DNA from: Sphaerodactylus townsendi
Lineage: Eukaryota
Length of the DNA: 64,000 nucleotides
NCBI RefSeq assembly: GCF_021028975.2
Contig: NC_059439.1
Location: 30,752,001 to 30,816,000, forward strand
Reading direction: 5' to 3'
Below the pieces are notes generated by a model. The model did not search any database, was not told the origin of the DNA, and saw only the letters and a program-made list of their open reading frames with translations. The position numbers and the translations under genes were made by a program. This document shows, piece after piece, positions 1-63,279 of this stretch; the stretch's first letter is position 1, and every line of letters starts with the position of its first letter.

Positions 1-128
1 ATAGGACATGGAAATCGAGTACTTCCACTCATCCCCTGAGGCATTCCTGGTCATCTGTAGGAGATCCCGAAGTGCTCGCGGAATCATCCCCGGCTGATCC
101 GGACTCCCCAACATGGTGTGTGTTTTAC
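1..128 (-). CDS. KIF22: KIF22 coding exon 3 (truncated by window edge)
   Basis: Acceptor AG at 130-129; G|GT AAA ACA CAC ACC ATG = GKTHTM. Confidence 0.93.
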
Positions 129-2008
129 CTGCCATTTTGGCGAGAGAAAGGACAAGTGGAAAAGGAAGTTTTACTGGAGAGTTCTGCGTTGGTTCCAAAT
201 TCCAGACTATTTCTTCCCTCCATTTGGGGCTGCCCCCTTGCCCAGTTCAGATATACGAGGTGTGCCGTCCCTCTTTCCCTTTTCCAGGGGGTCTTCAGCC
301 CGTACTTGCCCCAGGTACATTGGCTCCAGGGCACTGCTCCACCCTGGCTCTGCTCCTGGTGCTAGCGATAGCCTACTGGCCAAGGCAGATAGCATACGCT
401 GGTGCACCACCCCTTTAGTCCAGACTCAGTTGTTCCTACTGGGCCTAAGCTCCTCTTGGCTTTCTCCTCTAACTCTCCATCCGACTCTCTATCTCCCCTC
501 CCCCACCCCTGCATCCTTCTTCCTCCTTTTATACTCTTGTTCCTCCCCTTCCCGTCCCTGGCATCTCTCCCTCCATGCCCCCAGTGGGCCACGGATGCCT
601 GTCTGGCCCAATCAGATCCCCTATTGGTTTCCCGGCTCATGGCCCTACCTTCCCTTTTAGGCCAGGGAAGGGCAATGACCACTTCCTCCCGGCCAAAGCA
701 GCGTCTCCTGGTGCCATATCGTCACCACACCCCAATGCCTTGGGTGAGCCCAGCAGGGCCAGGGAGTTGGCAGGAGGTGGGCGCAGAAGTGCAAGGGTTA
801 GAGCGGCAGGCAGAGTCTGGGGTGGTGGCCACCGTCCCTGGAGAACTCTAGCTCCTCCTGGTTGGTTTGCCCATGGTGGTGAACCTTTGGCACTCCAGAT
901 GATATGGACTACGATTCCCATCAGCCCCTGCCGGCATGGCCATCACCACAACTAGATTTGTCACCGTTCGATATTCACCTGCTCCAGTAGGCCCGTAGGC
1001 CAGAATGCTGGCATTCTGCCCCTCCAGCAAATGGCTCAGGACAGGCTGAACTGATCCCACGTAGATGTCGTTTTGAGTGGCTTTTTCACCATAAAAGGCA
1101 TCAAACCTGGTCAGAAAAGAGGCACGATTGCAACCCATTGGTTTTCCCCTAAAGTAGAATCATAGAGTTGGAAGAGAACACAAAGCACCATAGAGTCCAA
1201 GGGCCAGGAAGAGGCAACCTGAAGTCACTTCCAGCCTTCAAGCACTTCCCCTAGCATAGCCCTGACATCAAAAGAACATTCCTCTGGAGCAGCCATTCTC
1301 AACCAGGGTTCCGTGGTACCCTGGGGTGCCGTGAGCATGTCCCAGGGGTACCGCAGCAACACTACCGCCCTCCCCCATTTTTGTGGTGTCTCCCACCGGC
1401 GCCAGCAAGGACATGGAGCTGGCCCATGGGGCAGGGCCTGCCACAAGGTCAGCAGCCACCACCACCCCCAGTGCTTCCCTTCACCCTGGGAGGGGAAGGT
1501 GGGGTGTGTGGCAAGCAGGGGCAATGGGAGGGGAAGGTGGAGGGTGGCGGCAGGGGTACCGTGAGATATCAAGAGTGAGGTCAAGGGTACCCTGACCTCG
1601 AAAAGGTTGGGAAACACTGGTCTGGAGAGACACCAGTGTGCATTTTGGTACTTTCCCATAAGCCAAGACCCGTAGGGGCTCCTCCCGCAGCAGACAAAGT
1701 CAACACAGCGTCCTGTCAGTCTTTCCTTGGGTCAGAAATTTCACTTACTGACCTGGGATGTACAGGTCAGGAGGAATAGATCCCTTCTGAATTATCTGCC
1801 CAACTCACCGGTACTTCATCGTCTCCATCTCATTTCTCCAGTTGAGGATTTCCAGGGAGTGGGAGTCCACGCCTCGTACACATGGGGCACTCTGACCCTG
1901 TCCATTTCCCACACCAGGGCGCAATCGCACACAAACCCGTACTCGGGCTTGCGCTTTAACAGGGACTCGGCGGAACTCAGCCTGACTTAATCGTTGACTA
2001 GTCGTCAT
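1..2008 (-). CDS. KIF22: Kinesin-like protein KIF22 (Kid), N-terminal motor part; gene continues off the left edge
   Basis: Coding exons 2008-1809, 1106-979, 128-1 join in phase: MTTSQRLSQ...[11 protein letters not shown]...[15 protein letters not shown]|[42 protein letters not shown]|[26 protein letters not shown]...SISMSY; P-loop GPTGAGKT; matches recalled KIF22. Confidence 0.95.
979..1106 (-). CDS. KIF22: KIF22 coding exon 2
   Basis: tctgaccag acceptor, GTGAAT donor; FDAFYGEK...YGPTGA. Confidence 0.95.
1290..1619. mobile_element. Non-autonomous hAT (Charlie-like)
   Basis: Termini CAGCCATTCTCAACC / GGTTGGGAAACACTG; TSD CTCTGGAG / GTCTGGAG. Confidence 0.7.
1809..2008 (-). CDS. KIF22: KIF22 coding exon 1 (exon starts at 2014, ATG at 2008)
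   Basis: Acceptor ctgatcatag ends 2015, donor GTGAGT at 1808; VRVCVRLRP kinesin beta-1 motif. Confidence 0.9.
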
Positions 2009-6440: not shown

Positions 6441-6587
6441 TACGTGAGTGGCCCTGTGTAGAAGAATCTCCTTTCTCATCCATCAGGCCACGGGGAGAGG
6501 CTCAAAATTTGAAGGACTGCGCACAGGATTGCGCTTTAAGCGGGGAAGCCTCGCCTTCACTTTTGTTGTATTCCATCTTGTGCAGCA

Positions 6588-6982
6588 ATGGAGGAAGCCG
6601 GCGCTGTGGAGGAAGGAGAAGTGACCTCGGGGATGCAGTCCCTGGCAGTAGAAGATGGGCCAGCCTCAGAGCTGGCCACCCCGACGGAGGAACAAGACGA
6701 GGCACCTGCAGAAGCAGAGGGGGAACAGGCGGGAGAGGGGGGCGAATCTGCCGAGGAGGATTGGTGCGTGCCGTGCAGCGATGAGGAGCTGGACTCCCCA
6801 GACAACTGGATGCCTCCCCCCGAGGAGATCCGGCGCCTCTACGAACAGATTGCTGCCCAGGGGACGCTAGAGATCCAGGCGGAAATCTTGCCCCGACGCA
6901 ACCCCACCCCGGAGCCCAACAGTGAAGATGAGGATAAATCCGACGGACAGCCCGACAATCAGGAAGAAGAGGAAGAAGAAAA
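6588..6982 (+). CDS. PAGR1: PAGR1 coding exon 1
   Basis: Acceptor tgtgcag ends 6585, ATG 6588, AA|GTGAGA donor. Confidence 0.93.
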
Positions 6983-9353
6983 GTGAGAGCGGGGGCTCTG
7001 GGTATTTGAATTAAGACAGTGGTGGCGAACCTATGGCACGGGTGCCAGAGGTGGCACTCAGAGCCCTCTCTGTGGGCACGCGTGCACAGAGTTCATCATA
7101 TGATAATAGTGTAATTATTTCAGGGAGATTATTAGCATTAAGCCTAAGACCTGGTTTTGGGGAAGCAGTGTAGGTAACCCTGTTAAACGATGTTAAACCC
7201 CACTGATCTTCATGGGAAGAACTAAAGTACAATCCTTTACCTGGGAGTAAAAGCTCCAGTTGCTTTTGGCAATGGGGTTTTGCTTCTGGAGTAAAACCCC
7301 TCCCTAGGGTCGTGGATTCACCCATTCGAAGCGTTGCACAGTTGCTTCAAAGCAAAGCCACCGACTACCACCAAGCTTACTCCCAAGTAATGCGCACCTT
7401 GGAGCCAACCGTTTTTTCTATACTAAAACCTCAGTATTCAGGTGAAATTGCCATGTTGGCAGTTTGCGATAAATGAGTGGGTTTTGGGTTGCAGTTCGGG
7501 CACTTGGTCTCGAAAAGGTTCGCCATCACTGAATTAAGACATGGGAGGAAGGACCTGGAGGGAGGACGGGGAGCCGCTATCGAGCGGGGCTGTGTTCATT
7601 CTGATTCTCTCTTTGCTCCAGGCCTCACGTGCCGACAGAGTTCGACTTTGACGACGAGCCAATCTCACCCAAAAAATCCTTGATCGATCGGCGGAGGACC
7701 CCTGGTATGTGACCCAGGAAAGCCATGCTTCTCTACACTGGCCTCCTGGACTCCTGCCCTTTCCGGAGAATTGGGGTTTGGCATTCCTTGCTGTATCCCA
7801 TGAGGCCCTGCTTCTGTCGTTACCCTCGTTCAGCCTCTGCTAACCTTGCCTTTGTTCCTGTTCCGCAGTCCTGCCCCTCACCACCCCTTAAGCCAGGAAT
7901 CCCCAAAAGGGTGTCATGGTGCTCATCAACAACCTTTTGGGTTCCCTCCCAAGTTTTTTTAGGGTGTGGGTGGAGCCCAATCAGCCTTTTGCCAAGCAAG
8001 CCTTCTGACTGGCAGTGCAATTTTTTGCCCCTCCCCTCCCTTGCATGCCACCCCTCTCTCCCCTCCCCCTCCCTCTGCTAGGATGGGTGGGCCAGGTCCA
8101 GATGCCGGGTCTTCTCCCCTCCCTTGCATGCCACCCCTCACTCACTCCCCTCCCATGCATACCACCCCTCCCTCTCCTCCCCCTCCCTCCGCTAGGGTGG
8201 GTGGGCCATATCCAGATGCTAGGCCCCCTCCCCTCCCTTGCATGCCACCCCTCTCTCCCCTCCCCCTCCCTCTGCTAGGGTGGATGGGCCAGGTTCAGAT
8301 GCCGGGTCCCCTCCCCTCCCTTGCATGCCACCCCTCACTCACTCCCCTCCCTTGCATACCACCCCTCCCTCCCCTTCCCTCCGCTAGGGTGGGTGGGCCA
8401 TATCCAGAGGCCGGGCCCCCTCCCCTCCCTTGCATGCCACCCCTCACTCACTCCCTTGCATACCACCCCTCCCCTCCCCCTCCCTCCGCTAGGGTGGGTG
8501 GGCCATATCCAGATGCTGGGCCCCTCCCCTCCCTTGCATGCCACCTCTCACTCCCCTTCCCTTCCTTGCATACCACCTCTCCCTCCGCAAGGGTGGGTGG
8601 GCCAGGTCCAGCAGCTGCTGCCACCGCAGCACAAACATTGCCACTGTATTGCTGAAGATGAGCTGTGACAATTGTTTTTTGGGCTTGCTCCGCCTCCTTG
8701 TCGCTGGGGCCACCATGCCATGACTGAATTCTAAAAATGCCCGCAGGTTTAAAAAAGTGTGTGTGTGTGTGTGGGGGGGGGGGGGCTGCCCTAACCTGTT
8801 CTGATCCCAAGAATCCAAGGTAGAGCTTCACTCCACACCAGAGTTAGCTGTTCAGGTCACCGCAAGGAAAGCTTGGCTGGCAACGTTTGGTGCTGTTGGA
8901 TGTAGGAGAGTAGACAAGCGGAGAAGGCAAGACAACCTGGTCTATGAGGCATACTTTCAGGTTGTTAAAAGGGAAACCAGGCTTACGCCCACAGCTAACA
9001 AGATGTCCTCCTGCTCCTTAACTGGGAGGGAAGTCGGACCGGAGTGAAACGGTTTCCCAGCGATGCTTTGCGATTGAGGTCTGCCTCTCGCTTTGAAAGC
9101 CTTGTCCCTCTGCTGACTCGTTCCTGTGGCCAAGTCTGACAAAGCCTAATTTTTATTCTGCTTTTCAGGGACTTTGGCGAAGAGCCAGAAGAGGGAGGCC
9201 CGCCTGGATAAGGTGTTGTCCGACATGAAGCGCCACAAAGTCTTGGAGGAGCAGATCATGAAGACCGGCAGGGACCTCTTTGACCTCGACTCCGATGACG
9301 TGCCCACTCCCAAAAGGCCACCGGGTCTTTTCTTGCGCCAGCGCAAATATTGA
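6588..9353 (+). CDS. PAGR1: PAXIP1-associated glutamate-rich protein 1 (220 aa)
   Basis: Exons 6588-6982, 7622-7704, 9169-9353 total 663 nt, in phase; [68 protein letters not shown]. Confidence 0.96.
7017..7531. mobile_element. Non-autonomous hAT, CAGTGRTGGCGAACCT family
   Basis: TIRs plus perfect TSD AATTAAGA. Confidence 0.88.
7622..7704 (+). CDS. PAGR1: PAGR1 coding exon 2
   Basis: ctccag acceptor; [27 protein letters not shown]; G|GTATGT donor. Confidence 0.95.
7894..8788. mobile_element. Decayed hAT MITE containing an expanded minisatellite
   Basis: CAGGAATCCCCAA left end, degenerate right end; imperfect TSD CCTTAAGC / CCCTAACC. Confidence 0.45.
8028..8612. repeat. C-rich compound minisatellite
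   Basis: Repeated CCCTCCCTTGCATGCCACCC and GCTAGGGTGGGTGGGCCATATCCAGATGC modules. Confidence 0.85.
9169..9353 (+). CDS. PAGR1: PAGR1 coding exon 3
   Basis: ttttcag acceptor; ends RQRKY TGA 9351-9353; AATAAA at 9504-9509. Confidence 0.95.
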
Positions 9354-9589
9354 CAGTAATGGGGGGGGGGGGTTTCCAATGGAACTAAGGGCTCCTGAGT
9401 TCTTGAACGTAACAGCAAATGAATACATTGCCACCATAGTCAAGACACAGCTCAGATCTTGCACTGGCTGCAGGAGGTATTTACTTGGGAGTTATCCAGG
9501 GACAATAAAACTCCATGAGTTTTTTTGACTTGTTGATATCTAGATTTTGGGTTTGCTTGTTTTTTTCCCCAGAAATTAAGAGGTAGAGA

Positions 9590-13149: not shown

Positions 13150-16100
13150 CTGCAATAAACATAGTTCTGATTAACAGGCAAGTGCAGCACAAACTGTGTG
13201 GCGTGCTTTATCAGCCTTGTCTTGAGGTAATCGTTGGGAATGCAGGTGAGGTAACTGCAGTGACTCCTGTCTTGCAGTAGGACATTTGCCTTGGTCGCCT
13301 GTGATGACTAGCCATCGCCTCAGGCGACCACGCACCTCTGTTGTTGAACAGGCAAGGCTACGTCAGCTGAGTCCACGGCTCTTTCTGATCTTGAATGTTA
13401 AACAAAAAACTGCAGGAGTGGACGAGAGCAGTGGGTGAGCAACCCTCGTCCCCATTCCTACAGACTTTCCTCTGAACATACTGGCTCTAAGGGGGCCTCC
13501 CTGGCAGGTGGCATAGCCTTGTCTGTTCAATAACATAAGAACAAGCCAGCTGGATCAGACCAGAGTCCATCTAGTCCAGCTCTCTGCTACTCGCAGTGGC
13601 CCACCAGGTGCCTTTGGGAGCTCACATGTAGGATGTGAACACAATGGCCTTCTGCGGCTGTTGCTCCCGATCACCTGGTCTGTTAAGGCATTTGCCATCT
13701 CAGATCAACAGAGGTGAATGGTCGCCTAAGGCAAGCCTACTGGTTTTACAGCTGTCCCACCCCTGGCTGCTTCTTAAAAGGCAGGTCCCAGGTGAGCTAA
13801 GGGATGCCAGTTAGAAGTTTCCTGCGTAATCGGAGAAGAAGAGGAGTTTGGATTTATACCCCACCTTTCTCTCTTGTACGGAGACTTACAAGCTCCTTTC
13901 CCTTCCTCTCCCCACAACACACACCTGGTGAGATAGGTGGGGCTGAGAGAGTTCAGCGAGAACTGTGACTAGCCCAAAGTCACCCAGCAGGAATGTGCGG
14001 AAACGCATCTGGTTCACCAGATAAGCCTCTGCCACTCAGGTGGAGGAGTGGGGGAATCAAGCCTGGTTCTCCAGATTAGAATTTACCTGCTCTTCACCAT
14101 GACACCGAGAAAGAGGAAAGATGTTTGTGAGTTAGACTGAAGTCCCTATTCGACCTCTGCGTTCAGCAGAGGCCAATCTGCTGGTGGTTCCTGGCCCCTC
14201 AATGATGCGGCTCGCCTCCACTCGGGCCAGGGCCTTCTCAGCCTTGGCCCCTGCCTGGTGGAACACTCTCCCTCCAGCTGTCCGGGCCCTGCGGGATCTG
14301 GGTGAATTCCGCAGGGCCTGTAAGACTGAGCTGTTCCACCGGGCCTTTGGAGTGTCCAGTTGCTGATTGGGTGCCCCCTTTTACTCATCCGGTTTGGAGT
14401 TCCCGCTGCCATCTACAGGACCCACCTTCCTGTCCTGTTTTCCCCCTCTCTGGGAGTGTTTTAATTGGGGTTTTATTGCGTGACGTCATCTCTGTTAATT
14501 TTATCGCTGTTTTTTAACTTTAATTTAATGGGGTTTGTTTGTATGGGTTGTAAATGGAAATTATGTTGTGCACTGCCCAGAGCCCTCCAGGGGTAGGGCG
14601 GTATATAAAACCAATAAATAAACAAACAAACAAACTGAGGCATTTCTACAGCTCCACCTTGAAAGGACACCGGAGGTTGGAGCGGCCCCAGACTCTGGCC
14701 CAAGAGAGTTGGATCCTGGGGATCACACCTGAGGCGGTTGTACGTTTCCCCCATGTTATAGGGGAAGGAACAGAGGTTGTGAAAGGACAACCTCCTACCC
14801 CCTGCATATGTAAGTAAAGCTTAAACCTGGGTCCCTTGACAATGGCACCGGGGCTTTCAAAACCACCTGTTCCTTATTACCATTGTGTGCTGTCGTGTGC
14901 AAGAAGGAGTCATCTACTAGGAGGCAGTATCCTTCTGACCAGCATTGTGGCTCACCACCTACCACCAGCTCACAACCGGGGGGCACCTTCAGCCCTGGAA
15001 AAGGAAGAAAGCAGGCACGTTTAGGAAGAAGGGCCCCAAATAACCTCCTCGCAACGTGAACACATGTGGACAAATACACATGTGTACACACAGGACCCCA
15101 AATTTAGTGATGAGGAAAGAAGCCCAAATTGGTTGTGGTGGGTTTTCCAGGCTGTGTGGCCGTGGTCTGGTGGATCTTGTCCCTAACGTTTCACCTGCAT
15201 CTGTGGCTGGCATCTTCAGAGGTGGATCACAGCGGGAAGTCTGTTACACACTGTGATACACCTCTGAAGATGCCAGCCACAGATGCAGGCGAAACGTTAG
15301 GGACAAGATCCACCAGACCACAGGCACACAGCCCGGAAAACCCACCACAACCAGTCAAATCCAGCCGTGAAAGCCTTCGATGAAGCTCAAATTGTTCAAA
15401 AGCAGTTGACACATGGAGATTATAGTGCACTGTATTGCCATCCTCTTACTTGGCTCTGACTTGCAAAGGTAAGAGCGGGAAAGGAACGTGTTGATGAGGG
15501 GAAACCAGACTGGAGACTCAGAAGGACAAGGAATAGGAAGCTTTTACATGCTGGAACCTTCTGTGGCTACTGCATGTTTTTCCATGCATCTGAGGAGAAA
15601 ATTCTGGATTACGTTCAAGGCATTGGTTTCGACCTTTGAGGCCTTGAGCGATCTAAGGGCTTCATAACTTCAAAACCACATCTTCTCATATTACAGTCCT
15701 TCAGAAGTGACTTACTAGTGGTTCCCAGCCCCAAAGACATTCAGTTGGCCTTTGAGGGCTTTCTTGGCCTTGGTTCCAGCCAGGAGGAACTCCCTGTCGG
15801 TGGACACCAGAGTTCTGTGGGGCTTTAATCAGTTTCACGGGTCCTGCAAGTTGACCACGGGGCTTTTGGTCGAGGCTACCCAGGAATCCATATAATCCCT
15901 GATAAGACAGCCTCCCTCATCTTGTGGATCTCCAACCACGCTCCCCCCCACCACACCCTTCCCCAGTAAATAGAGAACTTGTGCCAGGAGCGGGGTGTAT
16001 TGAGTTTTTAGATAAGGATTATAGTAATTTATATCCCCCCCTTTCTCTTCTGTAAGGAGACTGAAAAGGGTTTACAATCTCCTTTCCCCTGTTGCCCATG

Positions 16101-17142
16101 GATTCCCGGGTAACACCCCCACCCCAAACAAACACCCTCTAAGGTAGGTGGGGCTAAGAGAGCTCCGAAGAACTGTGATTAGCCCAAGGTCACCCAGCTG
16201 GTATGCACAAGATAACCTGGTTCACCAGATAAGCCTCCACAGCTCAAGTGGCAGAGCAGGGAATCAAACCCAGGGAAACGTCCGGGAAGGAAGACTCTGG
16301 CACTACCAACATTCACTGCTCACGCCCCTCTCCCACCGCCAAGCTCCCCCGCACTCCACTGCTCCCCCCAACAGGGTTTGCTCACCTAGGTGGCACCGTA
16401 CTCTGGTGTTGGTTGGCCCATAGGTCCCTGTCAGCACAGTTCCCGGTTGCAAGACGCTAAAGCAAGCGTTCCCAAAGCGGTTGGCGTTTACAAAGGTGCG
16501 CAGGGCACTCAGCGCCCTGTAGGTCCATGGGCAGCTGCGACAGTTCTGTGCCACGCACTCCCCCTGCCGGTAGAGGTAATAGCTGTGCCAGCCGGGGTTT
16601 GCGTTGGCCATCCATCCCCGCGGCGTAGGCGTCCCGGGTGCGAAATCCCACGCGATGTTCTCAAATTCGCGCAAGATAGCGGCGTAACTGAGTTCCAGGA
16701 CCTCGACGTCGTGGCGCTGGGACTCCCGGGGGAAGTAGGGGGCGGAGGGCAAATCTGGGAGATAAAAAGTGCTCGGCTTCTGGATGGCGAGGTGGTCGCC
16801 CAGCTGGTAGTGGGCCTGGTCCCGGATGCCTTTGTGCAGGCGGTTCATGCCAGACCACGAGTAGCGCTTGGCGTAATCCCGCAGGCTGCGATACAGGCGC
16901 TGGTTCATGGCATCGCTCTGGAGGGCACGGCGAGGGCATCGTTCCTCTGTGGGCACGCCCTGCTGGTGAGATGCAGGGGTCGCCTGCCCGCTCCCCACAC
17001 GGTAGCAATACCAGATGAACAGCAAGGCCAGGGAGCCCAGGACGGCTATGGTGGGTTCTGGTCGGGGCCTCCAAGACGAAGTGTCAGGGAGGAGTGGCGA
17101 GAGGAGGCCGCGGAGCCCCCAGTCGGACATGATACAGGGCAT
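13040..17142 (-). CDS. ASPHD1: Aspartate beta-hydroxylase domain-containing protein 1 (326 aa)
   Basis: Exons 17142-16386, 14994-14881, 13149-13040 total 981 nt; [67 protein letters not shown]; head-to-head with SEZ6L2 as in human. Confidence 0.93.
13531..13710 (-). mobile_element. CR1-like LINE 3' fragment
   Basis: AACATAAGAACAAGCCAGCTGGATCAGACCAGAGTCCATCTAGTCCAGC; near-identical copy at about 36292. Confidence 0.65.
13835..14107 (-). mobile_element. Squam3-like SINE
   Basis: Family match. Confidence 0.8.
14150..14635 (+). mobile_element. L2-clade LINE 3' end
   Basis: [15 protein letters not shown]...[17 protein letters not shown]2 C-terminus; GGGCGGTATATAAA...AATAAATAAAC tail. Confidence 0.8.
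14881..14994 (-). CDS. ASPHD1: ASPHD1 middle coding exon
   Basis: ttccag acceptor, GTAATA donor; [37 protein letters not shown]. Confidence 0.95.
15130..15381. mobile_element. Penelope-like element fragment, inverted pLTR pair
   Basis: About 100-bp inverted arms (15130-15232 / 15251-15353) with GAAGATGCCAGCCACAGATGCAGGCGAAACG; related copies at about 30603-30918, 38085-38210, 53690-53886. Confidence 0.75.
15261..15301 (+). ncRNA. Minimal type I hammerhead ribozyme motif (Penelope pLTR)
   Basis: CCT-CTGAAGA-T-GCC..GGC-GAAA-CG-TT-AGG; mirror copy on the minus strand at 15222-15182. Confidence 0.55.
16028..16273 (-). mobile_element. Squam3-like SINE, partial
   Basis: Family match. Confidence 0.75.
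16386..17142 (-). CDS. ASPHD1: ASPHD1 first coding exon
   Basis: First in-frame ATG after a TGA at 17157-17155; G|GTGAGC donor; start could alternatively be the ATG at 17130. Confidence 0.88.
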
Positions 17143-18154
17143 CTTCAAGCAGGCTCACAGCACCCCATGAGTGTCTGAGGACCTCTCTGGCCTTCTCATG
17201 CTGGCTCCTGGTGCCCTTTTAACCCCTTGTGCTACAGTGGGTGCCGTCCTCTCCGTCCTCAGCCGCGGCACCGATTCCCTCCTCCTCACATGTCCAGCTT
17301 TGTTTCTGGCTTCCAGGATCACTGGCTTAGCCTCTCCCCGGTCCTTTTCAACGCTCCTGCATCCCTCGGCCGGCCTGCCCTCCTTGCTCCATCACTGGCT
17401 TCTGTCTTTTCCTCTCCCCATGGCCAATCCAACATCTGTTACATCTCCACTCCTGCAATGTTTTCAGTCAACGATGCCCTGTTTCCTACCGGCTACTCCA
17501 GTTTTTCTCCATTCTCTATTGCTCTAGAGCTTTTCATGGCTTGTTTTCCTGCCAGAGACATCCGGAAAAGATTAAGATGTGCATCCCCCCCCCCTTTCCC
17601 CAGCGCGCACAGTTCCATCCACCACTGGCTCCATCCCTCCTTTTGACGTCGGACTCCTTCCTCGTATCAGCGCCGGGAGAGCTCCGCTGCATATCTAGCC
17701 ACCCCCACCACAGGGATCTGCTGCATCCCAGCACCAGCCAAAGAGCCTTTGAATAAACAGCTGCCTCCACCCCACCCCCCAGGCCCAAAAGTGAGTGGAT
17801 GAAAACATTAAGCGATGGAACTTGGCAGCGGGTAAATTGTACCATCCTTCTGGTTCCAGGGTGGGCGTGTGAATTGTAGGACCGACTGTGTCACCTGCAG
17901 GTTTGTGGCCAGGGGAAGGTCTCAACCCACAACCCCTCCCCTGGCTGTAGCAAGTATGGGCATACGCCTCACCTCCACCTCTTCCATCAATATCCAGGAG
18001 AGCCAGCGTGGCGTCGTGGTTAAGAGCAGGTGGATTCTAATCTGGAGAACCGGGTTTGATTCCCCACTCCTCCACCTGAGTGGCAAAGGCTTATCTGGGG
18101 AACCAGATGTGTTTCTGCACTCCTACGTTCCTGCTGGGTGACCTTGGGCTAGTC

Positions 18155-23296: not shown

Positions 23297-46104
<22,808 letters not shown>

Positions 46105-55579: not shown

Positions 55580-56310
55580 ACCCACCCCCTCTTTGCTTGA
55601 AGGGAATCTGCACCGGAAGCGGAGGAGGGGGGGAAACCCGGGGCTGTTCACTCCCTCCCCCGCCTCCTCCTCCTCCTCCTCCTCCTCCCCTTTCACGCGC
55701 GGCGGCTTGTGTCAGCGGCGCTGACGCCAGCATCCTCCCCCGCATCCCGTCGCCATGGCAACCCTTTGTTACCTCCGACGCTCGAGTGGTCCAGCCCGGG
55801 AGGGGGCCGGCCGGAGAGGTATATAGGCAACGCTGGGGGGGAGCCAAGGAAGGCAACTCCGGATCCCCACCCAGGAGGAGGAAGGAAGGCCAGGATCGCG
55901 GGCCAGCCAGGCGAGGATCGGGGCCGGGAGAGCAGACCCGCTCCTTATTGATTGACCTTGATGGTGGCGATAGATGCGCATTATAAAAAAAGCGAGATCC
56001 GTCTGGAAGGACTGCGCTGCACCCGAGCCCGGACGGAGGCACTGAGATCCTCCTCCCCTCTCCGGCCTCGGCCTCTTCCCTCCAGGCAGGAGGCGGCCCC
56101 TGAGGATCATTTTCTCTCTGCACAGAGGAACAGGAACTTGGGAGAGCAGTTTGCAGCACAGCCTTTGCTGGAGGGCGGCGAGCAACTGACCGGTAATGGC
56201 TTCCTTCTGTAAAGTTTTGGGGTGGTTGGGCAGCCGGTTTGGGAGGCCCGCGCCCGGATCTGGAAGCGGGGAAGGTTGGAGAAAACGAGGAGGAATGGGC
56301 GCACTTGGAA
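55580..56310 (+). promoter_or_regulatory. CpG island, probable promoter / non-coding exon 1 of the DUSP14-like gene
   Basis: CpG-rich; ETS CCGGAAG about 55613; X-box GTCGCCATGGCAAC 55749-55762; the nearest downstream plus-strand gene has an acceptor-preceded ATG. Confidence 0.65.
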
Positions 56311-57168
56311 GAGGAAGACTTTGAGTAACTTTGGGGTGGTTCTGTATGTTAAGAATACCTGAGGAGTTTTATGGCAGGTGGGAAATGTGCTTTTGGGGAG
56401 GGGGCAAGGAAATGTGAATTAGTGGTGTTGGGCCCATGTGGAAAGCTTAAAGGGGGCACATGGGATCAGGGACTTGGAGCCAGGCTTGGCAGCGCGCGGG
56501 TGCGAAATCTCACATTTTTGCACCCAGTTAATTAATCCAATATAAGCGCCACACCCTTCGCTCTGCATTTATAAGTTACCAAAGGTGGGTCGGAGTGCCA
56601 ATTCTATGCACGGAAACATGACTCAGGATAAAATTCGCCCTACGGGGCTTTGTTTCGCTGTACTGGGGTTAACTCTTGAGCACATTACTTTTGTGGCAAA
56701 GGTGATTTGAAATTCAACTTAAAAAAACAATAACAGGGTTTAGAGGCAGGGTGTAGAAATGAGGCACGAAGAGGTGGTTTGTCCTTTCCTGAGAAGTGGG
56801 GGGCAAACATTCATTTCTTTCTAGACAGATCTGGAGTTCAATAGGGAAGGAACAGTTGTTCCGAAAGTTAAAGGGAGAAGAGAGGGTGTGTTAAAGGATG
56901 AACATTTGAAGGGGAATGGTATATGCAGCCAGGCAGGTTGGAAGTGTTAAATGGGAAATAGTCTATCTGAGCTGCAGAAATTTGGGGAACAGGGACGAGG
57001 CAGTGTTTATAAGTGGCACACAAGGGAGGTTTGTAAGGGATGTGATTTCAATGCACGCCAGAGGAAATGTGAGGCCAAAGGAGGTTGAAAGTGATGAGAC
57101 AGTAGAGTAGATGGAGGCAGAACTTTTGGTTCAGCATTCCTAGAGAGGCAACCAGACTGGACCTAGAG

Positions 57169-57354
57169 CAGTGGTTCTCAACCTTCATAATGCCACGATC
57201 CTTTAATACAGTTCCTCATGTTGTGGTGACCCCCAACCCTAACATTTGTCCATTTTACAGAGGGAGAACACTGATGCAGAGAGTCTTAGGCGACCCCTGT
57301 GAAAGGGTCGTTCGACCCCCAAAGGGGTCCTGACCCCCAGGTTGAGAACCACTG
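57169..57354. mobile_element. SPIN/URR1-like hAT MITE (opposite orientation to the 2425 copy)
   Basis: CAGTGGTTCTCAACCTTC...TTTAATACAGTTCCTCATGTTGTGGTGACCCCCAACC...GGCGACCCCTGTGAAAGGGTCGTTCGACCCCC; perfect TSD ACCTAGAG. Confidence 0.88.
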
Positions 57355-59577
57355 ACCTAGAGTGAGGAGATATTATGTCATGGGTGTGTGTGGGGGGGAT
57401 AAAGGGTGGCGTGCAGAAGAATGCCTTTTGGGAAGCCATTTGAAGGCACGTTCTAAAGAGCACCTCTGTTTGTTTTGATGAATCCAAAATATTTATCCGT
57501 CCCCTTATTCTTCATTCACCGTACCTTATGCATATTGGAATGGCTACCTTTGAGGAAGGGCTGTGGGTCACGAACAGTACATCTGCTTAGCACACAGAAA
57601 GTTCCAGACTTAGTAACCAGTTATAAGGGACGAGTTGTAGGTGAAAGACCGCCACGTGAAGCCCTAGAGAATCACTGCCCGTCAGGGTAGAAATGCTTGA
57701 CTTCAGTGGATCTGATTCACTATAAGGCAGTTTTGTGTGTCTGCCCAAGATATAAACATATATGTAGAAAGCCTTCATCCACTGCCCAGATCTGCAAATA
57801 GTGGAAACGGCATTAAAGGGTAACTGATCTGTGTTACGCAATCTCAAACGTGTGCCTCTGCTCTTGATGGGTCCTCACCCACTTTTCAAACCTGATTGCT
57901 TCTGGTGGGCCTGCTTATTGGTACAGGAGCCACAAGAAGGGTTGTATGAGCTGGCCATTGAGTCTGGAAATGAGTTAACGTGAGAAGCGTGGAGTGCTGG
58001 TGGTTTAGGAATGCCATCCACCAGGTGGGACTTGAAGATCTCTCGGTATTACAGATGACCTCCAGAATGCTAAGATCAGTTTGCCTGGCTTCTTTGGAGG
58101 GTAGACTCCATGGCCATGTATCTCATGAGCTCTGCCCCTCCCCAAACCCTGTTTCTATTAGCCCCAGCCCCCCAAACTCTGGATATTTCCCAACCTAGTG
58201 CTGGCAACCCTACCTTGGTTCAAGACACATTGAAATAGCAAGTTATTATAACTGCGTGGTGGTGATATACCTGAGCAGAATTCTTTTAAGGAGATGAAAA
58301 TGCATTGGGTTCGCCATCAAGGCCCAGGACAGATCTCTGGGCTGTGGTATATCCCAGGGAGCATAAGCCTTTTGCAGTACAATATTTACAGAATCTATTT
58401 CTTAATCTTGGTGCATTCTTATCCCAAAATGTATTTGTTAGACTCAGTGTTTTCAGTTATGTGTCAGCCGCACAACTCAAATTTGAGGAGAAATCAGTGC
58501 ATCCCGGTTTGGATAATTCCCTGGTATTTAGAAAGGGGGTGAGGGGAGGAGGGACTTCAGTCTCTTTGCCCCATGGATGTTTTGTGTGTTCTTGAGATTA
58601 TTATGAAAGTGTGATAGATGAACAGGAGGAAGCAATTTGGGAAGAAGGAAAGCATAAACCAAGTAGGGTATAACGAATGCAGATATTTGGGGGAGGGACT
58701 GTTTGTCATATAGAGGAAGGGAACCTCTCTGATGCAGAGGCAACTCCCTCCCTGCACACCAATAACCACAAAGCAAAAGTTGCACATTAATACCAACACA
58801 CACACCCCCTGCATTTTGAGCCCACTGCAGTTTTGGCAAAGGGGTTGACCGGCAGAGAGCCCAGGCACTGGTCTGCTAAAGAGCCCACTGCCCCTTTAAG
58901 AGGCTGTCCGCTCCCTCCCCCATGCCTCCATTTTCCCATCTTCTCCATCATCCCCTTTCTGCGCATCATTCCTGCAGCATCACAGTTTCTAGTTCCTTCC
59001 CTTCTTCCCTCCCCCTTCCCTGGCCCTTGGAAGCAGGAGTCGGAGCAGCCACCGGCCGCTGCTGGGGGACTTTAAGGAAATGATTGAGGTAGGATATCGG
59101 GAGATGTTTGGTTTTGCACAAATATAGAACTTGCTGATGCACATTCCCCTGCAGTCCTCTTTTGCGCCCTCCTTTACTTTTTTATTGCTTCCCGTTGCTG
59201 TGTCATGTCATCTGTCTCTGTTCCCATCTCCTTCCTAAAATCACTGTTCCCCTCCACCCCTCTCCACATACTGTTATTGTTCGGTCTCTCCTGTTTGCAC
59301 CAATAATCGCTTCTCGTTCCTGTGCCTCGTTGGCCTCATATCTGTCCAGATTGATCTCTTACAAATCCATGCCTACCCCCGTCTATCACGTGCAGAGGAT
59401 TTTATTTTCAGCTGCTATTTGAGAGTGCTGTTGGTCACAAAAAGCATTCTGAATTGTGAGGGTAGGAGTGGCTCGGGGGGCGGTTAAGTAAGAGCGTTAG
59501 GGGACATGATGTGGCCGTTTAACTCTTAAGCGTGGCCCGGTTCTTAAGCCTTGCCTTTCTTCTCCTCCACAGCTGTT

Positions 59578-60219
59578 ATGTACGCTGAACCATCCACCAT
59601 GAATTTCCGGAACCACGGCTTTTTCCGCCGTTCTCCGCCCCCTTCAGTGACCAAACCGTCCCCTACCGCTGGGAACGCTCTGTCTGTCTTAGGAGGCATT
59701 GCCCAAATCTCGCCCTGCCTCTACCTCTGCTCTGGCAATGCAGCATCCAACAGACACATGGTCTACTCCAGGGCAGTGACTTGTGTGGTGAATGCTACCA
59801 TGGAAATCCCCAATGCCAACTGGCCAGATATTGACTACGTCAAGGTGCCTGTTCCTGACCTTCCTCACGCTCCGCTCTCCTTGTACTTTGATTCTGTGGC
59901 CGATAGGATACACCAGACCGGGAAGAAGAATGGAAGAACCCTCGTCCACTGTGTGGCAGGCGTCAGCCGGTCTGCCTCCCTCTGTATTGCCTATTTAATG
60001 AAATATCACCGGTTGAGTCTCTTGGATGCCCACGAGTGGGTGAAGAGCAGGCGGCCTGTCGTGAGGCCCAACGTAGGCTTCTGGAGGCAACTCATAGAAT
60101 ATGAACGGAAGCTGTTCGGCAAGAACACTGTCAAGATGGTGCCCTCGCCCATTGGGTTGGTCCCAGATGTCTATGAAAAGGAGACCCGCGGGCTGGTCCC
60201 CGTGTGGAATTTAAGATAG
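59578..60219 (+). CDS. Dual specificity protein phosphatase 14-like (atypical DUSP14/18/21 family), 213 aa (206 aa from ATG 59599)
   Basis: Single coding exon after acceptor ctccacag (59572); GGIAQI, VNATMEIP, VPDLPHAP (general acid D), HCVAGVSRS, AYLMK, RPNVGFWRQLIEYE, PDVYEKE; intact catalytic motif. Confidence 0.93.
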   Translation: MYAEPSTMNFRNHGFFRRSPPPSVTKPSPTAGNALSVLGGIAQISPCLYLCSGNAASNRHMVYSRAVTCVVNATMEIPNANWPDIDYVKVPVPDLPHAPLSLYFDSVADRIHQTGKKNGRTLVHCVAGVSRSASLCIAYLMKYHRLSLLDAHEWVKSRRPVVRPNVGFWRQLIEYERKLFGKNTVKMVPSPIGLVPDVYEKETRGLVPVWNLR

Positions 60220-60913
60220 ACGCTGGGTAACTTTGGGGAGATGGTTGGGTGGTGGGCTGGCTGGAGTTAGGATCAAAATGTTCCACCATGGTAGGACCTT
60301 GGTATGACCTTCCAACATGGTGGACCTTGATAAGGAATTCTGTTATGGTTAGTCTTTTTGTAAGGCCTTGCAATATTAGATCATGGGAAAGACTTGATTT
60401 ACTTGGACCTTCCAGTGTGGTAGACTTTGATGGTTCCACTGGGGCAGACATCACTAGGAATGTCACCTTGCTTATTCTGAGAAGATAGTTAAGAACAATA
60501 AGTATAGGGAATAAAGATTACTATCTAAAACAAGGACACCAAGATCTTAATAAAGCACCTCTCCCTAGTTAGGAGGCGAAACATGAATCTTTTGGAGACA
60601 GTGTCACTACTCCCAGCTACTTCCTAGCAATGGAAATTGAAAATATTTTTATTTTTCAGTGAACACAATATACATTCTCCCCGTCCTCCTCAGGGAGTGA
60701 TATTTAAGCACCAAGGTGATATAAACCCCTGTTAATGTTACTCCAAACATTCAAGGAGCGCTGCATCAATAGTTGGCCAGAAATCAGGAACCTAAAAATG
60801 ACTTAAAAGAATCCAGTGCTAGAGGGAACGTTGAAAAAGGGAGGGAAACTGATATAAACGCTGGTTTTCACTGAACAGGCTGCAATCTGGTCCATAAATG
60901 ACATGAATACTAT

Positions 60914-61042
60914 GGCTGATTCCGCATGGGCCAAAAACAGCAGTGTGAAAACGGTGTGAAAGGGTTCAAAACGGTGTAAAAGGGTTTATACTGTTTTCAC
61001 ACCATTTTCACACTTCTGTTTTTGGCCCATGCGGAATCAGCC
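60914..61042. mobile_element. PIF/Harbinger-like palindromic MITE
   Basis: TIR GGCTGATTCCGCATGGGCCAAAAACAG; TSD TAT. Confidence 0.75.
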
Positions 61043-63269
61043 TATGTTTCAGTAGAGTGTTCCAACTCAGGGAGGAGAATCCAAAAGGACTGAGGGAAAA
61101 GGAAGGGAGAATTTTAATATTACCTCAACACCAGAGCCCACCCAAAGCTGGGGAGGACATATGGCACCAAAGAGGACACAGTTTAAATGGAAAAGGGTAG
61201 TGGTTCATAGATACCTCTACTTCTGGCACTAGGAATTACAGTTTAATATAAAAAAAAACCAACCCATCTTATCTCTGCTCCTCAAGGCCAACAAATTGCA
61301 AAGGGCCCTGGTAGCGCGTGGGTGGGAAGAGGGGAGTTTTCTAAACATTTCACCCGCAAAGAAGCACATTTCCAAAGAGAATAACCTACCCCTGGAAACT
61401 GACAGAAGCAAAAATCCATTCAGAAGAATAGTAAAAGCAGCAGCATTCTGAGCAGTGAATTTAATATCTGAAGCAGCAGCTCGGTGTTTTAAACAAAGCT
61501 GTGCGAGGGGTGAATTTTAAGCAAAACGTGACAGTTCTACTTGAAGAGGAGCTCCACAGTAATGGCACAAAAAGGGAAAGATACACTCTGCAGCTGTAGG
61601 CATTTTCCACGGAAACGTACTCATCGTGTGTAACATTTCAAAATGGTGCTGACAAGAAGACCAGGCTGCACCTAGAAGCTGAGCCGAACCAGCAGACATG
61701 TTATTTCAAGCTGCATATGTTGTTTTGATGCCTGGTTGTTTCTTTTTTTTGGTAAGATGCCGACTCCCAAGTTTTTCAAAAGGATTGTTGAAAGGCTCAG
61801 ATTTGCCGTTCAGATCCCCACTTGAGGAAGTTTAAAGCAAACTGCTGTTTTTCTATGAAGGAAGTTCTAGAATGAAGAAGTTGCACATCCTTTACCAGCC
61901 TCTGTCACAATCAGCCCCTAGTACAACTCTTCCCCCCCCAAAAAAGTCTTGCCATCTTGTAAACAGGGTTATTGTAGCATTCTTAAACATTCATGAATAT
62001 TCCTACGACCATATAAGCAGTAGCAGGTTGAAATCTGTTTTCTTTGAACAACTCAGTACATTGTGTCCTAACATTATTTTGGCTTTTTTAACCCGATATA
62101 TCAGAGTTCCAGCGCAGTGAAATAAGCTGCTAGATTAATGTGATCTTTGCAAAGAAAATGTCATTTCTAAGCCAAATCTTTGCAAAAAAATAATGAACTA
62201 AGCCACTTGGGAATATGTTGGTTCTTATATATTGCAGGCGAATAACTGCTCCCCCAACCCACCCACCTTCCTGTTTATGAATAAGTTGAAGTATCTTCAT
62301 TACCTCCGCCTGAGAAAACAGGCAGACGGTATTTGGCAAATTGGATCTTACGACTTTCAAAGCGTAAGCCATATTCCCCTTTCCCTCCCTCAAATATTTT
62401 ATTATTTTACTTTGTTAGAAGAATACGGGGGGTGTCATGTAACAAAACCCCTTCAAAATATTTTACAGAAAACTCGTATAACTTTTTGTAGACTAGAGTC
62501 TTATTGGGTCAAATATCTATCCTAAATTATTGGGTCAAAATTAATAGCAGCAGCTGTAAGTTGACTCCAGGAAGGAACGTAAGCTGTCATACTAATGTAG
62601 TTTTTTAAGCAACACCCTCCAAGTATGTTCCTTGGTCTGTAGCCTGTGACTAGGAATATACGAAGCTAGATTAGTAGAGAGTTGAGAAATAAAGCCAATT
62701 AAAGGTACCTGAGAGCAAGACTGCGGTTCAGAGATTTTTCAGACCCCCGAATTCACACATTTCCCAGAATCTACACCTCCAAACCACCATCTGCTTGAAG
62801 TCTGTTTTTCATCTCTTCAGGCAGAGCAAGGTTTGGGAGCTGAAAACTGCTGGATTTTCCCCCTCAAACCATAGCAAGTTCATCCTTTCCATTTAAGCAC
62901 AGAATGTCTACGTTAGAAGGCTCTTAAAACAGCTGGCATCTGAACAAGGGGGTTAACGTGCTATATAGACAAATGTTTAAGCCAGCATGTAGCACTGGTT
63001 AATGTAAGAGTCATTGTAGCCATACAGAACATTTCCCTCCCAAAGTAGGAATTGGGCCCATGAGGAGAATTTCAGCTCTCATTAAGGGGCAGTTGGTTGA
63101 CACGGGTCACAGCACAGCGGGTCTTTTTCCCCCCAATTGTTACGTATACATATCTATAAATATTTAAAACCTATGCCTTTCTGTATAGTTTGTACATAGT
63201 AGAGGATTAAATGCGGGAATCTATATTAATTAAAGCTAGGGTTTCTTATGGCTTCAGTTCAAAGATCTT

Positions 63270-63279
63270 AATAAATAAA
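63270..63279 (+). terminator. Candidate distal poly(A) signal of the DUSP14-like gene (proximal AATAAA at 60510 and 60549)
   Basis: AATAAATAAA preceded by an AT-rich tract with TGTA motifs. Confidence 0.4.

Follow-up and report, generated by a model that had tools for sequence, protein, structure and literature searches.

The window studied here, a 64,000-nucleotide stretch of the genome of the gecko Sphaerodactylus townsendi (contig NC_059439.1), contains KIF22 (- strand), PAGR1 (+), ASPHD1 (-), a SEZ6-family gene (+) and, last in this order, a gene encoding a DUSP14-like phosphatase (+) (Table 1). The SEZ6-family gene includes a TM exon, and its tail, which finishes at a stop at 46104, contains YSPI and NPLY, both given as sorting signals of SEZ6L2 in a row of a published table (PMC5297682). 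The name SEZ6L2 is based on these tail motifs and on the neighbouring ASPHD1, the Atlas name for the sushi exon being just 'sushi domain'. Runs of N occur in this gene (28732-28872, 35370-35500 and 35522-35684), and one CUB exon region may be incomplete. A CpG-dense segment at 45600-45950 (o/e 1.20 in 45501-46000), located inside its last intron, is probably a repeat insertion.

KIF22, PAGR1 and ASPHD1, together with TMEM219, lie on human 16p11.2. Instead of the 17q12-type neighbours LHX1, TADA2A and SYNRG, the window carries KIF22, PAGR1, ASPHD1 and SEZ6L2. No Pfam sign of MAZ, PRRT2, MVP or CDIPT, which are neighbours in human, was obtained from the longer ORFs of positions 1-46104. Between 46 and 64 kb, none of 136 ORFs, a subset of those of 45 aa or more, gave a Pfam match that would point to further genes.

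Table 1. Coordinates of genes and features in the window
Feature	Position	Strand	Evidence
KIF22 exons; gene extends beyond the window	1..1159	-	KIF22 E 1.6e-20, next kinesin 5e-08
PAGR1, three coding exons	6579..9377	+	PAXIP1_C, E 3.8e-18
ASPHD1-type gene, head to head with the SEZ6L2 gene	14798..17154	-	Asp_Arg_Hydrox; Atlas cluster named ASPHD1, score 0.93
SEZ6-family CUB/sushi gene, mapped exons, taken to be SEZ6L2	29280..46104	+	3 CUB and 5 sushi ORFs; SEZ6L sushi E 3.5e-28
Stretch also conserved in snake gene models, in their 5' part	55630..55830	+	Crotalus P0004 E 1.7e-22; Naja P0166 E 6e-06
CpG island, likely promoter	55680..56280	.	GC 0.64, CpG o/e 0.71
Upstream exon as mapped, from the ATG of a RefSeq isoform at 55961	55961..56192	+	100% to P0160 aa 1-77
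GT-AG intron, 3,380 nt, joining upstream and coding exons in frame	56193..59572	+	Gene models, splice signals
Single coding exon of the DUSP14-like (clade B) phosphatase, 213 aa	59578..60219	+	ORF, Pfam and PDB matches
Second in-frame ATG (MNFR start), CCACC context	59599..59601	+	Use as start inferred
Asp94, aligned with DUSP14 Asp80	59857..59859	+	D in 36/36 clade A and 36/36 clade B proteins
P-loop HCVAGVSRS with Cys125 (DUSP14 Cys111) and Arg131 (DUSP14 Arg117)	59947..59973	+	Alignment
Candidate 3' end	60510..63275	+	AATAAA at 60510, 60549, 62688, 63270

Structure of the phosphatase gene

A previous sequence-only reading of this DNA had proposed an intact ORF of the DUSP14/18 family carrying HCVAGVSRS, and this was confirmed: the frame at 59578-60219 (+) is unbroken, without stop or frameshift, and its 213-aa product matches Pfam DSPc (PF00782) over the whole model length (E 8.5e-36). 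Among PDB structures, DUSP14 (2wgp) matches best (E 2.2e-82), followed by DUSP18 (E 3.9e-66) and DUSP21. All the Pfam matches of the protein are of phosphatase type, and it lacks an N-terminal rhodanese/MAPK-binding domain, which the atypical DUSP14/18/21 subfamily is not known to have. The features of this subfamily, namely the DSPc domain, the HCxxGxxRS P-loop and the upstream Asp, are present in the gecko protein, this last residue being aligned with DUSP14 Asp80, to which we ascribe a general-acid role.

The ORF starts with MYAEPST, whereas the N-terminus given in the sequence-only reading, MNFRNHGF, corresponds to a real in-frame ATG further inside (59599), at whose position the coelacanth and lungfish orthologues start. 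The ORF protein is found letter for letter inside the RefSeq model P0160 of S. townsendi, whose first 77 residues map to 55961-56191. An identical junction between this upstream exon and the coding exon is implied by three models, P0160, P0125 (Gekko kuhli) and the unnamed Logan protein P0127, splicing being deduced from gene models and from splice signals. The acceptor noted upstream of the ORF does exist, a pyrimidine tract preceding an AG at 59571-59572, 5 nt upstream of the ATG, and so does the nearby CpG island (55680-56280, GC 0.64), where CpG o/e is 0.71 vs 0.31-0.33 in the flanks. The translation of the upstream exon is poorly conserved (47-51% identity to two other N-terminal extensions), and this exon is therefore probably, to judge from its sequence, mostly 5' UTR. 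The start of the gene near 55.6-56.0 kb leaves an intergenic gap of about 9.5 kb to the SEZ6L2-type gene; the 13.5 kb that had been reported between them holds from stop to ATG (13,474 bp), not from gene to gene.

The coding region is intronless, as expected if the ORF were a processed or otherwise non-functional pseudogene, but the intact frame, the canonical intron, the CpG island and a mean core identity of 98.7% over 17 squamates make this explanation practically untenable, in agreement with the former judgement that an obvious processed pseudogene was not involved.

Phylogenetic position among four vertebrate clades

Homologues were collected by a single-protein search (480 matches among 619 candidates) and by a profile search (750 matches among 8,000), the best 120 being listed in each case. 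Two trees of about 200 columns were built, with 88 of 210 proteins (tree 1) and 60 of 450 (tree 2), rows being picked for taxon spread after isoforms, fragments and most unnamed proteins had been dropped; tunicate, amphioxus, brachiopod and mollusc proteins were used as outgroups. The high-scoring P0301 and P0302 were discarded, being repeats internal to distant proteins. A full HMM scan of 50% representatives, where proteins more than 50% identical sit behind a representative, gave no new clade-B representative among the best 150 of 322 at E<=1e-30. A search for longer forms returned three matches among 7,997 candidates, none of them of clade B; this was a weak search, the known long turtle fusions being absent from its results.

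Both trees resolve four vertebrate clades: A, corresponding to DUSP14; B, containing the gecko gene; C, formed by DUSP18/21; and D, a fourth one. Clade B (support 100/95 in tree 1 and 98/95 in tree 2) comprises proteins from chimaera, sharks, rays, lungfish, coelacanth, caecilians, salamanders, frogs, turtles and squamates, the nearest neighbour of the gecko protein being P0122 (Gekko japonicus XP_015275026.1). It is the sister of clade A (95/86 and 99/88, respectively), and C groups with D (97/87 in tree 2), giving the overall order ((A,B),(C,D)). Chimaera and elasmobranchs are present in both A and B, and the duplication that separated these two clades is thus older than the split between sharks and bony vertebrates. 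By source names, 36 taxa have both an A and a B protein, with an A-B core identity of 61-72%. Squamate DUSP14 proteins (P0063-P0073) have a long stem branch, 0.2 in tree 2, and the clade B protein P0179 (Platysternon) wrongly bears the name 'copper homeostasis protein CutC' in its source.

Clade D includes coelacanth, lungfish and caecilian proteins (P0071, P0076, P0081, P0087, P0089), to which fast teleost proteins were added in tree 2 (97/97; P0313, P0333, P0336, P0356, P0368, P0408). The teleost part consists of two fast subgroups, one member being si:ch1073-184j22.2. When these teleost proteins were considered as clade B orthologues, the AU test rejected the arrangement (p-AU 0.0067), long branches being involved, and they join D. 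No amniote or cartilaginous member of clade D was seen. This clade is likely the fourth copy generated by the two rounds of genome doubling (2R). No lamprey- or hagfish-named sequence was present among the matches listed, and 1R/2R timing relies on topology and paralogon pairing.

It could be argued that the gecko gene is the true DUSP14 orthologue, relocated, or a recent gecko or squamate duplicate of it. P0160 bears the plain RefSeq name 'DUSP14', and a DUSP14 from the host was not seen among the members listed (10/10 and 15/37) of the squamate DUSP14 clusters. Against this, the grouping of squamate A with squamate B as a recent duplicate is rejected by an AU test made, like all those reported here, after tree inspection (p 8.8e-05), five other geckos (Gekko japonicus, G. 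kuhli, Eublepharis, Paroedura and Euleptes) have both genes, Eublepharis having DUSP18 too, and the clade reaches chimaera. Such an explanation can hardly be upheld, and neither of the two outcomes that would have contradicted the sequence-only reading was obtained: the protein is not nested in the DUSP14 clade in either tree (88 and 60 rows), and it is not a gecko-specific duplicate. Mammalian proteins called 'DUSP14-like' (Chionomys, Ochotona) were placed inside the DUSP14 clade.

Another proposal would be a paralogue from the first round of genome doubling, closest to the fourth clade or to DUSP18 instead of DUSP14. The branch joining A and B is short (0.08-0.10), its SH-aLRT is moderate (86-88), and the AU test rejects B as sister to D with a p of just 0.029, in a comparison that involves long branches. 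However, A+B has starred support in both trees, shark DUSP14 is 70% identical to the gecko protein, and the same pairing is predicted independently by the paralogons, all of which makes a first-round origin very improbable.

Probable genomic origin and losses

In a paralogon study (PMC12954441), SEZ6, LHX1 and TAOK1 are assigned to paralogon 2A, and SEZ6L2, KCTD13 and TAOK2 to 2B, the A-B and C-D paralogon pairs are attributed to the second whole-genome duplication (WGD), and dot-chromosome blocks such as 2B are considered to derive from a loss-prone recessive subgenome. DUSP14 and LHX1 are described within the same 17q12 interval (PMC10655816). The earlier assignment of this 16p11.2-type block to the DUSP14/SEZ6 paralogon fits that published 2A/2B table, and the pairing of A and B in the trees matches the pairing of 2A and 2B. 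We infer that the gecko gene is the paralogon-2B copy, with DUSP14 as its 2A partner.

Direct observation of linkage is limited to the gecko window, that in turtles being deduced from fused gene models. The models of Pelodiscus (P0149) and Chrysemys (P0159) fuse a PAGR1 domain to the clade B phosphatase, which indicates that the phosphatase lies directly behind PAGR1 in turtles. The order differs from that of the gecko, where SEZ6L2 is the upstream gene, and therefore the block has been locally rearranged. In addition, the python and Gekko accessions of the phosphatase are numerically near those of TMEM219 in the table of Hara et al. (PMC5901865), an adjacency of accessions only. Gekko accessions near that of the phosphatase also correspond to crk-like and urotensin-2 receptor-like elusive genes (rows 293, 427 and 549 of Table S10 in the same source), a hint of more lost ohnologues in this block.

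The difference in neighbour order between gecko and turtles would also fit an old duplication of DUSP14 on a small scale, either in tandem or by retrocopying, before the split of sharks and bony vertebrates, the copy having come to lie in the SEZ6L2 block by chance; a single-exon coding region could move as a retrocopy, and the tree by itself dates the split just to before the gnathostome radiation. Nevertheless, the landing site would coincide exactly with the block published as the 2R partner of the DUSP14 region, two genome doublings predict just such a symmetric ((A,B),(C,D)) topology, and both a 5' intron and a CpG-island exon are present in the gene. We consider a small-scale origin improbable. 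In contrast, it is very probable that we are dealing with an intact, spliced sister gene of DUSP14, extending from sharks to lizards, likely born in the second vertebrate genome doubling and, by analogy with DUSP14, predicted to damp MAP-kinase signalling. The separate WGD paralogue proposed in the sequence-only reading is supported, although it is kept well beyond reptiles, in cartilaginous fishes, lungfish, coelacanth and all three amphibian orders. The family would then constitute a clean four-copy example of 2R with reciprocal losses.

Clade B accounts for 135 of 450 proteins, 134 sorted clearly and one more by the tree, seven of them unnamed. None of the 135 is named as coming from a mammal, bird, crocodilian or ray-finned fish, and no tuatara protein was seen among the members listed. 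Four clade B clusters are partly listed (20/35, 12/27, 4/19 and 9/24 members unseen), and the unlisted and unnamed members might still hide a crocodilian, bird or monotreme protein.

The gene had already been catalogued. Row 206 of Table S10 in Hara et al. 2018 (PMC5901865) contains, as AmnPhylome_0001335_sub_002, the gene LOC107117427, classified as 'elusive', with DUSP14 as its non-elusive paralogue and counts of 0 birds, 0 mammals and 0/2 alligators; the deep search in that work covered 112 mammal and 68 bird gene sets. It is the same gene, XP_015275026.1 being P0122 (Gekko japonicus) and XP_007424400.1 being P0136 (python). The gene fits their definition of elusive, which asks for two or more reptiles and an outgroup and for the absence of mammals and birds, this absence holding among the cluster members listed here. 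The record consists of a table row, with neither synteny nor cartilaginous fish and with an empty Xenopus cell, and it includes gar, zebrafish and stickleback genes, whereas no ray-finned member of clade B was found here; these ray-finned genes may belong to the fourth clade. In that work, 469 elusive genes are given, and such pairs are treated as probably early-vertebrate duplications. The core finding, a paralogue of DUSP14 lost in mammals and birds, is therefore ordinary, since ohnologues kept elsewhere and lost in these two groups are a common and well-described class. The literature searched yielded no article centred on this paralogue or on how the Xenopus gene is named, nor any direct synteny paper on the gene, and the supplements of PMC10208646 gave no match by gene name, their large table, visible in part, being keyed by ids.

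TMEM219 is present in humans. The Hara table, which is automated, gives 0 mammals for it too (PMC5901865). Even so, the loss of clade B in mammals, already suggested in the sequence-only reading, is well supported, both by that table and by the absence of mammal-named proteins among the 135. The loss in birds is likely but less sure, due to the fact that in chicken paralogon 2B corresponds to dot chromosome 38, whose assembly is difficult; of the 16 ohnologues of 2B listed, crocodiles keep 11 and birds 9 (PMC12954441). Separate losses would have taken place in mammals, archosaurs and probably ray-finned fish, a pattern that would be typical of the recessive subgenome.

Predicted function and relation to DUSP14

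In cysteine phosphatases, a Cys attacks the substrate phosphate, an Arg holds it and an Asp acts as general acid. By conservation, these roles would correspond in the gecko protein to Cys125, Arg131 and Asp94, respectively, and taking into account that the three residues are invariant in the 36 clade B proteins compared, an active cysteine phosphatase is predicted. The protein is about 67% identical to mammalian DUSP14 (MKP6, 17q12, 2wgp), with which it shares the single-domain layout, the catalytic D, C and R, and Arg45 and Lys103, but from which it differs in belonging to a separate clade since before sharks, in its paralogon and in its N-terminus. The P-loop has HCVAG where DUSP14 has HCAAG, although shark DUSP14 has V too. 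DUSP18 and DUSP21 belong to the same subfamily and have the same P-loop, with about 54-56% identity to the gecko protein, yet in both trees the first split separates them from it.

TAB1 and ERK are dephosphorylated by human DUSP14, and the activation of this enzyme has been reported to involve methylation of Arg17, Arg38 and Arg45 by PRMT5, TRAF2 binding at the IAQIT motif and ubiquitination of Lys103; its activity is reduced by C111S, and the double mutant Q29N/T31S loses TRAF2, single T31S falling outside that paper (PMC6219832). At these sites, the gecko protein keeps Arg45 and Lys103, lacks Arg17, and has S38 and IAQIS. Position 31 is Ser in 25/25 tetrapod B proteins, which have IAQIS vs the IAQIT of DUSP14, and Thr in 36/36 A proteins; tetrapod clade B thus carries T31S naturally at a TRAF2 site that has been mapped. 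R38 is not diagnostic of DUSP14, because the DUSP14 proteins of sharks and squamates lack it too. Since Arg17 and Arg38 are missing and the TRAF2 motif is IAQIS, the switching-on of the protein probably differs from that of human DUSP14. It would therefore act as a brake on MAPK pathways with a partly different activation, its presumed substrates (ERK, JNK or the TAB1-TAK1 pathway) being those suggested by DUSP14. Squamate DUSP14 has Lys at position 38 in 17/17 proteins, and His replaces an otherwise invariant Arg149 in 8/36 clade A proteins.

The frog proteins annotated as DUSP14 deserve a separate comment. X. tropicalis NP_001072193.1 and X. laevis dusp14.L NP_001086177.1, both named 'dusp14', sit in clade B, as do 'DUSP14'-named proteins of Rana, Bufo, Hyla and others (ids including P0261, P0281 and P0276), and the placement of frog 'dusp14' with clade A was rejected (AU p 2.1e-04). 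Xenopus 'dusp14' is, despite its database name, the orthologue of the gecko gene. True frog DUSP14 is confined to one cluster (9/9 members listed), with proteins from Ascaphus, Discoglossus and pelobatoid frogs; none from pipid or neobatrachian frogs was seen among the listed cluster members, and on this absence from the lists a loss in both groups is likely.

In squamates, mean core identity over 17 species is 98.7% for B and 90.9% for A, and B is more identical than A in 136/136 pairs, which are not independent of each other. This is opposite to the trend described for elusive genes, on average faster than their partners (PMC5901865). In both trees, it is the B copy that is faster in cartilaginous fishes. 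The Xenopus naming, the absence of DUSP14 from the pipid and neobatrachian proteins listed, the slower squamate copy and the placement of teleost proteins in D were not found in print within the literature searched.

An ohnologue hand-over can be proposed, to which we give an even chance of being correct: the four 2R copies would survive variously, with Xenopus and neobatrachians running on the twin after losing DUSP14, and squamates having a near-frozen twin and a DUSP14 that has sped up. If true, most frogs and squamates would rely mainly on the copy discarded by mammals for DUSP14-type braking of MAPK, and this copy would have its own activation mode.

The lack of orthology between Xenopus dusp14 and the human 17q12 gene matters for models of that deletion interval and for frog synteny anchors, and dusp14 has been used as such an anchor in one paper (PMC2777172), where Xenopus Dusp14 is reported near Nme2, whose human counterpart is on chromosome 17. 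This proximity would be compatible with a paralogous block and also with a location that differs in frogs. In linking Xenopus Nme2 to amniote NME1/2, that paper relied in part on the nearby 'Dusp14', which is the clade B paralogue. Moreover, the Ensembl protein id of Xenopus 'Dusp14' is near that of an elusive NLK2-like gene (Hara Table S10 row 17), and by this adjacency of ids, the sole basis for the idea, Xenopus nme2 itself might lie in the paralogous block.
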